This document shows, in pieces, positions 13,966-14,698 of a stretch of 25,893 nucleotides of DNA. Numbering within the stretch: the stretch's first letter is position 1; the number at the start of each line of letters is the position of its first letter. Position numbers and translations under genes: made by a program. Source of the stretch: Candidatus Aenigmatarchaeota archaeon. GTDB taxonomy: Archaea; Aenigmatarchaeota; Aenigmatarchaeia; CG10238-14; SCSR01. The stretch covers positions 1 through 25,893 of the forward strand of contig JAWCSL010000010.1 in the NCBI GenBank assembly GCA_039090665.1, in the 5' to 3' direction. A model generated the notes under the pieces. That model was not told where the DNA came from, made no database searches, and was given only the letters and a program-made list of their open reading frames with translations.

Positions 13966-14698
13966 TTAAGCCCTCAATTTCTTGATTTCCTCTTCACTCA
14001 ATTTCTTAAATTTCTTCTCTTCTGCTCTTATTACGGCTATGTCAGCTTCTCCTTCTTTTTCAGTTTTTGAGATTATTTCTAAAGCGATTTTCAAAGCTTC
14101 AGTTTCGCTTAGATTTTGTTTCCATTTTTGTCTTAAAATTTTGTTGGCAATTACAGAACCTCTTCCTATAGCATAAGCAAACCATTCATAAATCATTCCA
14201 GAAGGATCTACTTCTATCACATGACTTCCAGTTGTGTCAACACCACCAATCAAGAAAGAAACACCATAAGGTCTTAAACCAGCGTAAAGTGTGGAAATTT
14301 GCATTCTATCAGCAACACTTTTCGCTAAGCTTAAAATATCCATAGGCTCTTCATAAGTTAGCCTATGAATTTGTGCCCTCACTCTAGCTTGGTTCGCTAA
14401 AACTCGAGCATCAGCAAGCAAGCCAGCGGCTACAGCAGCAGCATGGTCATCAAGCTGGAAAATCTTTTCTATGGATTCTGGAACCATTAAGGGAGTTTTT
14501 GGCTTGACTGTTGCAAACAAAACACCGTTTTTAAAAACCATTGCTATACAAGTTGTTCCTCTTTTCACTGCTTCTCTCGCATACTCAACTTGAAACAATC
14601 TTCCATCTGGACTAAAAACAGCTTTCACGGGCTGTAGGAGCTTCCTATCAGCCTATCGTGCGGTCATATCCCATGTACTCAGGTAATATCTCCGGAAT
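13966..14698 (-). CDS. psmA: Proteasome alpha subunit, predicted spliced gene: exon 1 14698(ATT) or 14674(ATG) to 14655, exon 2 14623 to 13966
   Basis: Exon 2 encodes [22 protein letters not shown]...GLLADAR...RPYGVS; exon 1 encodes [13 protein letters not shown]; joining restores [12 protein letters not shown]. Confidence 0.92.
14624..14654 (-). other. Predicted 31-nt bulge-helix-bulge (tRNA-type) intron in psmA mRNA
   Basis: Minus strand reads CACG-ATA-GGCTG-A-TAGGA-AGC-TCCTA-CAGCC-CGTG-AAA-GCTGTT; 4-bp CACG/CGTG helix between 3-nt bulges; contains in-frame TGA TAG. Confidence 0.82.

Follow-up and report, generated by a model that had tools for sequence, protein, structure and literature searches.

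A predicted transfer-RNA-type mini-intron in the proteasome alpha-subunit gene of a Candidatus Aenigmatarchaeota archaeon, with similar inserts in its relatives

The window analysed here is a stretch of 25,893 nucleotides (nt), positions 1 to 25,893 of contig JAWCSL010000010.1 (assembly GCA_039090665.1), from the metagenome-assembled genome of a Candidatus Aenigmatarchaeota archaeon, here named G000. Its minus strand carries the conserved archaeal cluster Rpp30, Pop5, psmA, SBDS and Rrp4, as recognised from an open reading frame (ORF) listing and Pfam matches, and the element in question is a 31-nt insert in psmA, the gene for the proteasome alpha subunit. On the minus strand the gene reads ATG GGA TAT GAC CGC ACG AT, then the insert, then A GCT GTT TTT AGT CCA GAT GGA. 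The insert (a ggctg a tagga agc tccta cagcc cgtg aa) separates the YDRT part of the protein from AVFSPDG and carries TGA and TAG in frame; the sequence agrees in this with a preliminary description made from the letters alone. Read straight through, the codons are ATA GGC TGA TAG, and ORF callers therefore begin psmA at GTG 14628, inside the insert, which is the start that the preliminary description had predicted and that the ORF listing gives.

The ORF called from GTG 14628 covers the whole Proteasome domain (PF00227, E 7e-51). It lacks the first part of the alpha signature, since its match to Proteasome_A_N (PF10584) comprises positions 7-23 only of the 23-position signature. The signature is complete once exon 1 supplies the YDRTI part, with exon 2 supplying PF10584 positions 7-23. 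In the spliced alignment exon 1 showed no mismatch to a 25-residue consensus and one mismatch to a 30-residue consensus, a K to R change in the added AKEAVK tail. Two proteasome matches were found in G000, psmA and one beta subunit with the TTTVG active-site motif. A second, intact psmA, which would have pointed to decay of this copy, was looked for, and no second alpha-subunit gene was found in the 620,606 bases of G000 (15 contigs, 90.6% complete).

The archaeal splicing endonuclease cuts after the second base of each bulge of its substrate. In the window, the protein places the splice points at that position in both 3-nt stretches, and excision of 14654..14624 gives ACG ATA GCT, joining the YDRT part to the AVFSPDG part with no residue gained or lost, a result that sequence and spliced alignment share with the earlier application of the cut rule. 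The predicted exon-exon junction in the spliced messenger RNA (mRNA) is CGCACGAUAGCUGUU, also given as CGCACGAUAGCUGUUUUU. The minimum free energy (MFE) structure computed with RNAfold for 14680-14610 contains a CACG/CGUG helix, an AUA bulge, an interrupted hairpin of 5+5 base pairs (bp), giving an inner helix h' of 10 bp, and an unpaired AAA, which is the fold that had been claimed. The motif is of the relaxed class, because no outer exon-exon helix forms; this is a recognised subclass of bulge-helix-bulge (BHB) motifs and not an exclusion from them (the motif is taken here as described in the available text of Kaneta 2018, PMC5829648). An Rfam search of 13800-15200 returned no family at E <= 1. 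The features of the locus are collected in Table 1.

Table 1. Position of the predicted intron, its structural elements, the psmA exons and the neighbouring genes in the window.
Feature	Position	Strand	Evidence or remark
31-nt BHB-type intron (predicted)	14624..14654	-	sequence, fold, spliced alignment, covariation
In-frame TGA (14650-14648) and TAG (14647-14645)	14645..14650	-	block translation of unspliced RNA
CACG, exonic 5' strand of central helix H (4 bp)	14657..14660	-	4/4 pairs, invariant in 4 sequences
5' bulge, A-T then a	14654..14656	-	predicted 5' cut between 14655 and 14654
Helix h', the intron hairpin of ggctg/cagcc and tagga/tccta with loop agc and one bulged a	14630..14653	-	MFE fold
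Intronic 3' strand cgtg of helix H	14626..14629	-	contains GTG 14628-14626 chosen by ORF callers
3' bulge, a-a then A	14623..14625	-	predicted 3' cut between 14624 and 14623
Exon 1 of psmA	14655..14699 from ATT, or 14655-14674 from ATG	-	last bases are AT of the Ile codon
psmA exon 2, opening with the third Ile-codon base and running through AVFSPDG... to stop	13966..14623	-	Proteasome PF00227, E 7e-51
Candidate non-canonical psmA start ATT, in frame with exon 1	14697..14699	-	start codon of the relatives' MPEILPEY falls here
First canonical in-frame ATG of exon 1 (MGYDRTI...)	14672..14674	-	
Shine-Dalgarno-like GAGGTGAT upstream of psmA	14704..14711	-	sequence; GGTGA motif also before the start position in most relatives
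Rpp30	15419-16135	-	
Pop5	14771-15109	-	
SBDS	13211-13930	-	
Rrp4	12555-13214	-	

Inserts in other psmA genes were located by protein-guided spliced alignment, a procedure blind to RNA structure. The close relatives belong to the Candidatus Aenigmatarchaeota, and 38 of 40 related genomes could be evaluated, psmA of G003 and G015 being interrupted by contig ends. Inserts were present in 11 of the 38 (the one in G008 was identified by eye), and in six of the seven evaluable genomes of the window's genus. G002 and G004 carry a homologous 31-nt insert with substitutions, and G006 and G007 a different 31-nt insert, shifted one base further on. At the same site the junction is intact in G001, which has its insert elsewhere, and in G005, which has none; their sequences, ACG ATA GCC GTT and ACT ATC GCA GTC, are the predicted exon junction as natural DNA. 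The preliminary description had proposed a comparison of presence, absence and stem covariation among relatives, and these two congeners bear out the first part of it. Beyond the first 30 codons psmA aligns unbroken in the relatives.

Genome and metagenome psmA loci were then pooled (125 loci, 100 distinct 5' regions). After removal of inserts, 87 of the 100 regions matched the 30-residue consensus with <=2 mismatches; the other 13 were left out as YDRAITVF-type outgroups or as having no solution, and their translations are contiguous. Solutions with three mismatches (L032, the outgroups L063-L073, L137 and L139) were dropped as spurious, their translations likewise being contiguous. Among the 87 regions, 35 carry a total of 60 inserts of 18-37 nt, placed at four sites within 30 codons: site A between EY and MG (22 inserts), site B within the Ile codon of T-I-A (16 inserts, four at the window's position and 12 one base later), site C between VF and S (12 inserts) and site D between QV and EY (10 inserts). 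Nineteen regions have one insert, seven have two, and nine (L081, L083, L112, L116, L121, L128, L131, L061 and L011) have three mini-introns within the first 30 codons; the exons between such triple mini-introns are as short as 8-9 nt, for example from site B to site C in L011. This four-site hot spot is the unusual feature of the case, and, as far as the sequences can tell, the phenomenon is larger than first stated, with four predicted intron sites spread over the phylum, all in the opening 30 codons.

At the boundaries defined by the protein, all 60 inserts satisfied the BHB cutting register. Of the four pairs of helix H, 50 inserts have 4/4 and the remaining 10 have 3/4, and the inner helix is of >=4 bp in 56/60. 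A single placement is possible for 32 of the 60, every one with at least 3/4 pairs in H. As a control, 48 shifted registers were passed by a mean of 2.2 inserts of the 60, with frequent passes only for symmetric inward shifts, which reuse the same pairs. The spurious inserts of the outgroups, used as a further control, have inner helices of 0-2 bp. Not all of the motifs are relaxed: in G001 and G002 an outer helix of 5 bp accompanies the intron at site A.

Covariation was evaluated in alignment A1, the intron family of the window, made up of its own insert and those of G002, G004 and G012, the last from another genus. In A1, 98.2% of cells were paired and 6 of 14 pairs showed compensatory change, a result reached by 1 of 500 shuffles; slid controls gave 32-43% paired cells. 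The hairpin h' contributes 10 pairs (97.5% of cells paired), six of them with compensatory change, and the four pairs of helix H are invariant, hence uninformative in this small set. The stems thus covary, as had been asked of them. In the other inserts the exon takes part: the intron has C or U opposite the Glu codon GAG or GAA at site A, and C, U or A opposite an Arg codon ending in G, A or U at site B, position 62. These synonymous exon positions are tied to intron bases, which leaves a constraint at the RNA level as the only explanation. Codons 5' of the 3'-most insert, which would be untranslated or not in frame unless the inserts were excised, show up to four synonymous codons per position and two amino-acid changes in total, a pattern in the aligned sequences that indicates purifying selection on the upstream exon.

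A single EndA gene was found in G000 at C12:23808-24371, encoding 188 residues with N- and C-terminal domains (PF02778 and PF01974) and aligning over its full length to the homotetrameric Methanocaldococcus jannaschii enzyme 1a79 (E 3.9e-29). No paralogue or second subunit was detected at E <= 1 in this 90.6% complete genome, and with one gene and no second-subunit gene found, the enzyme is of the homotetrameric (alpha4) type. The preliminary description had classed the motif as relaxed with an imperfect outer helix, and had tied it to the broad-specificity EndA forms of Crenarchaeota, Nanoarchaeota and ARMAN; the relaxed class stands, the outer helix being absent altogether, and the named enzyme type does not, the architecture being that of the single 188-residue M. 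jannaschii type. The loop between the RVY and EH motifs is six residues longer than in M. jannaschii, about the length of that in ARMAN-2 4fz2, and is a candidate L3 loop only. The available text of PMC5829648 ascribes single-subunit enzymes with an additional loop (L3) to several DPANN lineages in which many transfer RNA (tRNA) genes are disrupted. The ligase RtcB is intact in G000 as an open frame of 486 residues. ARAGORN detected only 23 tRNA genes in G000 and marked 10 as intron-containing, some of these calls (SeC, Stop) being doubtful; the program may miss many tRNA genes whose disruption is too great.

Taken together, the 31-nt insert is very likely an archaeal BHB (tRNA-type) mRNA intron spliced by EndA and RtcB. 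This reading draws on the observed geometry, the restoration of the frame, the intron-less junction of congeners, the covariation of the stems, the purifying selection on the upstream exon and the presence of EndA and RtcB in the genome. From these we infer that cleavage and ligation take place, and by which enzymes. After transcription, exonic CACG would pair with intronic cgug, placing the splice sites in two 3-nt single strands on opposite strands, 4 bp apart and stacked on the intron hairpin. The single EndA would cut after the second base of each stretch, and RtcB would join the exons to give ...CGC ACG ATA GCU GUU..., the intron probably being circularised. The full alpha subunit with its YDR gate motif would be encoded only by the spliced mRNA, and unspliced RNA would end at TGA/TAG after 8 to 17 residues.

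Several points weigh against this reading. The fold energy of -19.8 kcal/mol (z = -1.76) was equalled by 10 of 200 shuffles, and the case was built on geometry and comparison because fold energy alone is not significant. The insert lacks part of the strict hBHBh' motif, its outer exon-exon helix h having 0 pairs; in the available text of PMC5829648 the single-subunit EndA architecture is classically limited to strict motifs, and the only EndA in G000 has that architecture while the motif in the window is relaxed. Boundaries were not always unique: for the window insert three placements yield the same product, and for 28 of the 60 inserts two to four do, the best-fitting one being retained in each case. 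The related sequences in the pooled set are not independent, and the selection argument is partly circular, because the search demands a match to the consensus. No RNA run is listed among the sequencing runs for this DNA.

It is very unlikely that no splicing occurs and that translation simply starts at GTG 14628, producing a gate-less alpha subunit (MK-AVFSPDG...) with the YDRT codons left as a decaying remnant. Such an ORF exists and spans the whole Proteasome domain, and N-terminally truncated Thermoplasma alpha subunits still assemble, with the gate open. However, in the 35 insert-bearing sequences the upstream codons differ abundantly by synonymous changes while the protein they encode is conserved; the GTG is nothing more than part of helix H, on its 3' strand, and has no Shine-Dalgarno motif before it; and the 12 inserts at position 62 close with the out-of-frame TTG of aatTTG. 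A start downstream of the site D inserts would cost 20 more residues, sites C and D would be left unexplained, and so would the covariation of the stems. Translational bypassing, in which ribosomes would hop over the 31 nt and the RNA would stay unchanged, is highly improbable. The arrangement recalls gene 60 of phage T4, where a stop follows the take-off codon and a hairpin lies in the gap, and the insert does combine a stop soon after the take-off region with a stable hairpin; yet take-off and landing codons that match are missing, the same genomes would have to sustain as many as three hops in a span of 30 codons, and each of the 60 inserts conforms to the EndA register, with a 4-bp exon-intron helix for which hopping has no need.

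The remaining alternative, an error of assembly or the inactivation of psmA by inserted mobile DNA that forms a hairpin, is extremely improbable. A metagenome-assembled genome in 15 contigs makes an error conceivable, but the insert was found unchanged, with 0 differences and 0 indels, in contigs of all four DNA runs, from four hot-spring metagenome studies, one of which may be the source sample of the genome. Three of these runs have contigs spanning 14450-14841 or more, and the X10 piece spans 14577-14850. An assembly artefact, the check suggested in the preliminary description, is excluded because of these contigs and the homologous inserts in assemblies of other species. A dispersed mobile repeat is excluded as well, the insert being single-copy in G000 and inserts of different sites showing no similarity to each other at E <= 0.01, and a broken gene would be the only alpha gene of a genome that retains its beta subunit. 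Run X1 also contained a second contig of 210 nt (depth 3.3) that matches 14567-14607 with four differences and then diverges, probably from a related strain or species in the same sample.

A genome-wide scan for BHB inserts in other genes, which the preliminary description had recommended, yielded, besides that of psmA, a second predicted mRNA intron, in cbf5. A first scan, requiring 4/4 pairs in H and an inner helix of >=4 bp in inserts no longer than 120 nt, returned 85,138 candidates with thousands of frame-joining matches, mostly gene junctions. With a short geometry, the 620-kb genome gave 26,970 candidates, 447 of which retain the core in their own MFE structure, the psmA insert ranking fifth by energy among them. 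A frame-joining filter left 25, and the top two by energy per base were the cbf5 and psmA inserts; ranking by total energy was biased to long candidates and unhelpful. On inspection C13:14649, C9:9221, C10:22103, C2:2405, C8:31277, C1:12427 and C14:6384 proved to be continuous reading frames, and psmA and cbf5 were the only survivors of a scan that would overlook long introns, relaxed ones and those followed by a frame of <80 codons. Several of the most stable BHB-like candidates lie in C1:39000-47500 (for example 46182-46231, 45801-45845 and 39410-39449), which may be the ribosomal RNA (rRNA) operon with introns or processing stems.

The cbf5 insert is 21 nt long (C10:53755-53775, L035:456-476), contains an in-frame TAA and lies between DKCLD and TruB_N (DKHSGP, T, SHQV, with the split at the T). 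The DKCLD domain falls in exon 1 (E 3.5e-10), the TruB_N, TruB_C_2 and PUA domains in exon 2. Helix H is TCCC/ggga with bulges ACa and aaA, and a 4-bp outer helix makes the motif strict. The predicted junction is uninterrupted (DKxxGPTSHx[VI]T) in 11 relatives and contiguous also in G010, G011 and G009, and the insert is absent from G002, G004, G005 and G006 of the same genus. The idea that this lineage splices housekeeping mRNAs with the tRNA machinery holds, on the predicted introns, for at least two genes, because the cbf5 intron was found too. In cbf5 of G007 (L163) and G028 (L174) the catalytic Asp codon is split, after GA and before T, by inserts with stops that are 15 and 12 nt long, and the genes read through as GTLENN*GNP and GTLE*RRNP, respectively.

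The start of psmA raises a separate question. At the position where the MPEILPEY sequence of the relatives begins, ATG, GTG or TTG is present in 46 of the 87 distinct regions and ATT, ATA or ATC in 18, suggesting that AUH codons may initiate psmA in the phylum. The window has ATT at this position, with an in-frame TGA three codons upstream (TGA TGC CCA ATT); in relatives with ATT, ATA or ATC an in-frame stop is often found immediately upstream. A canonical ATG at 14706-14704 overlaps the GAGGTGAT Shine-Dalgarno motif and is not in the psmA frame, being off by one base in comparison with G004.

No introns in archaeal psmA were found in a literature search from which subscription journals were left out, in line with the preliminary description, which knew of no BHB intron in this gene. 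In the available text of Schwarz 2020 (PMC7714728), cbf5 is the only archaeal protein-coding gene with an endonuclease-type intron, plus one case in a 5' untranslated region (UTR); the available text of Yokobori 2009 (PMC2738675) names cbf5 as the coding-region case. As far as the accessible portions of the sources show, the psmA insert resembles the crenarchaeal cbf5 intron (Watanabe 2002; PMC2738675) in being a short endonuclease-type intron of a housekeeping protein gene with an exon-intron BHB, and in occurring in some lineages while others lack it or have lost it. Unlike it, the psmA insert occurs in a different host gene and in the Aenigmatarchaeota, a DPANN phylum, with up to three introns per gene at four sites; the crenarchaeal cbf5 intron has a two-subunit endonuclease and experimentally shown splicing, whereas here the endonuclease is a single EndA gene for 188 residues and splicing of psmA is predicted.

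A similar likeness, again from the accessible text (PMC7714728), is found with the Haloferax volcanii HVO_1309 5' UTR BHB, which gives the splicing endonuclease a substrate in mRNA and not in tRNA or rRNA, as psmA is predicted to do. That element lies in an untranslated leader, interrupts no frame and was confirmed in vivo and in vitro, whereas the psmA insert splits a frame. The tRNA introns of Thermoproteales, Nanoarchaeum and ARMAN, in the portions of PMC5829648 available, share relaxed BHB or bulge-helix-loop (BHL) motifs with one outer helix missing, short length, several introns per gene, and an association with endonucleases carrying extra loops, but in psmA the substrate is mRNA and the junction is constrained by the reading frame and not by a tRNA fold. 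In the available text on HAC1/XBP1 (PMC8718801, PMC13149111) the shared features are the protein-only, structure-guided removal of a small frame-shifting mRNA intron, joining by an RNA ligase, and splicing that decides which protein is made. There, IRE1 is the nuclease, two stem-loops are used in a regulated eukaryotic stress switch, and ligation is of the RtcB type in metazoa; the motif and the nuclease of psmA differ.

The restriction of psmA introns to the 5' end may reflect the product of the unspliced transcript: introns would be tolerated only there perhaps because unspliced RNA yields a very short peptide and not a long truncated ring subunit. The introns could also be more than neutral passengers and serve as a checkpoint at which the gated alpha subunit needs sufficient EndA and RtcB activity, tying proteasome synthesis to RNA processing, a proposal we regard as unlikely; if it were true, unspliced RNA would give a harmless short peptide or, via the intronic GTG, a gate-less subunit.

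For the biology of these archaea, the finding means that an essential single-copy housekeeping gene would depend on tRNA-type splicing, with 60 such predicted introns at four positions in one phylum. Automatic annotation truncates these psmA genes, and in the window it starts inside the intron with loss of the YDR gate motif. The inserts offer a natural series of minimal mRNA substrates, strict and relaxed, for probing a single-subunit DPANN endonuclease, and their extreme 5' clustering may point to a rule for the tolerance of mRNA introns under coupled transcription and translation. The presence and absence of the inserts among congeners would make the gain and loss of introns in prokaryotic mRNAs directly datable.
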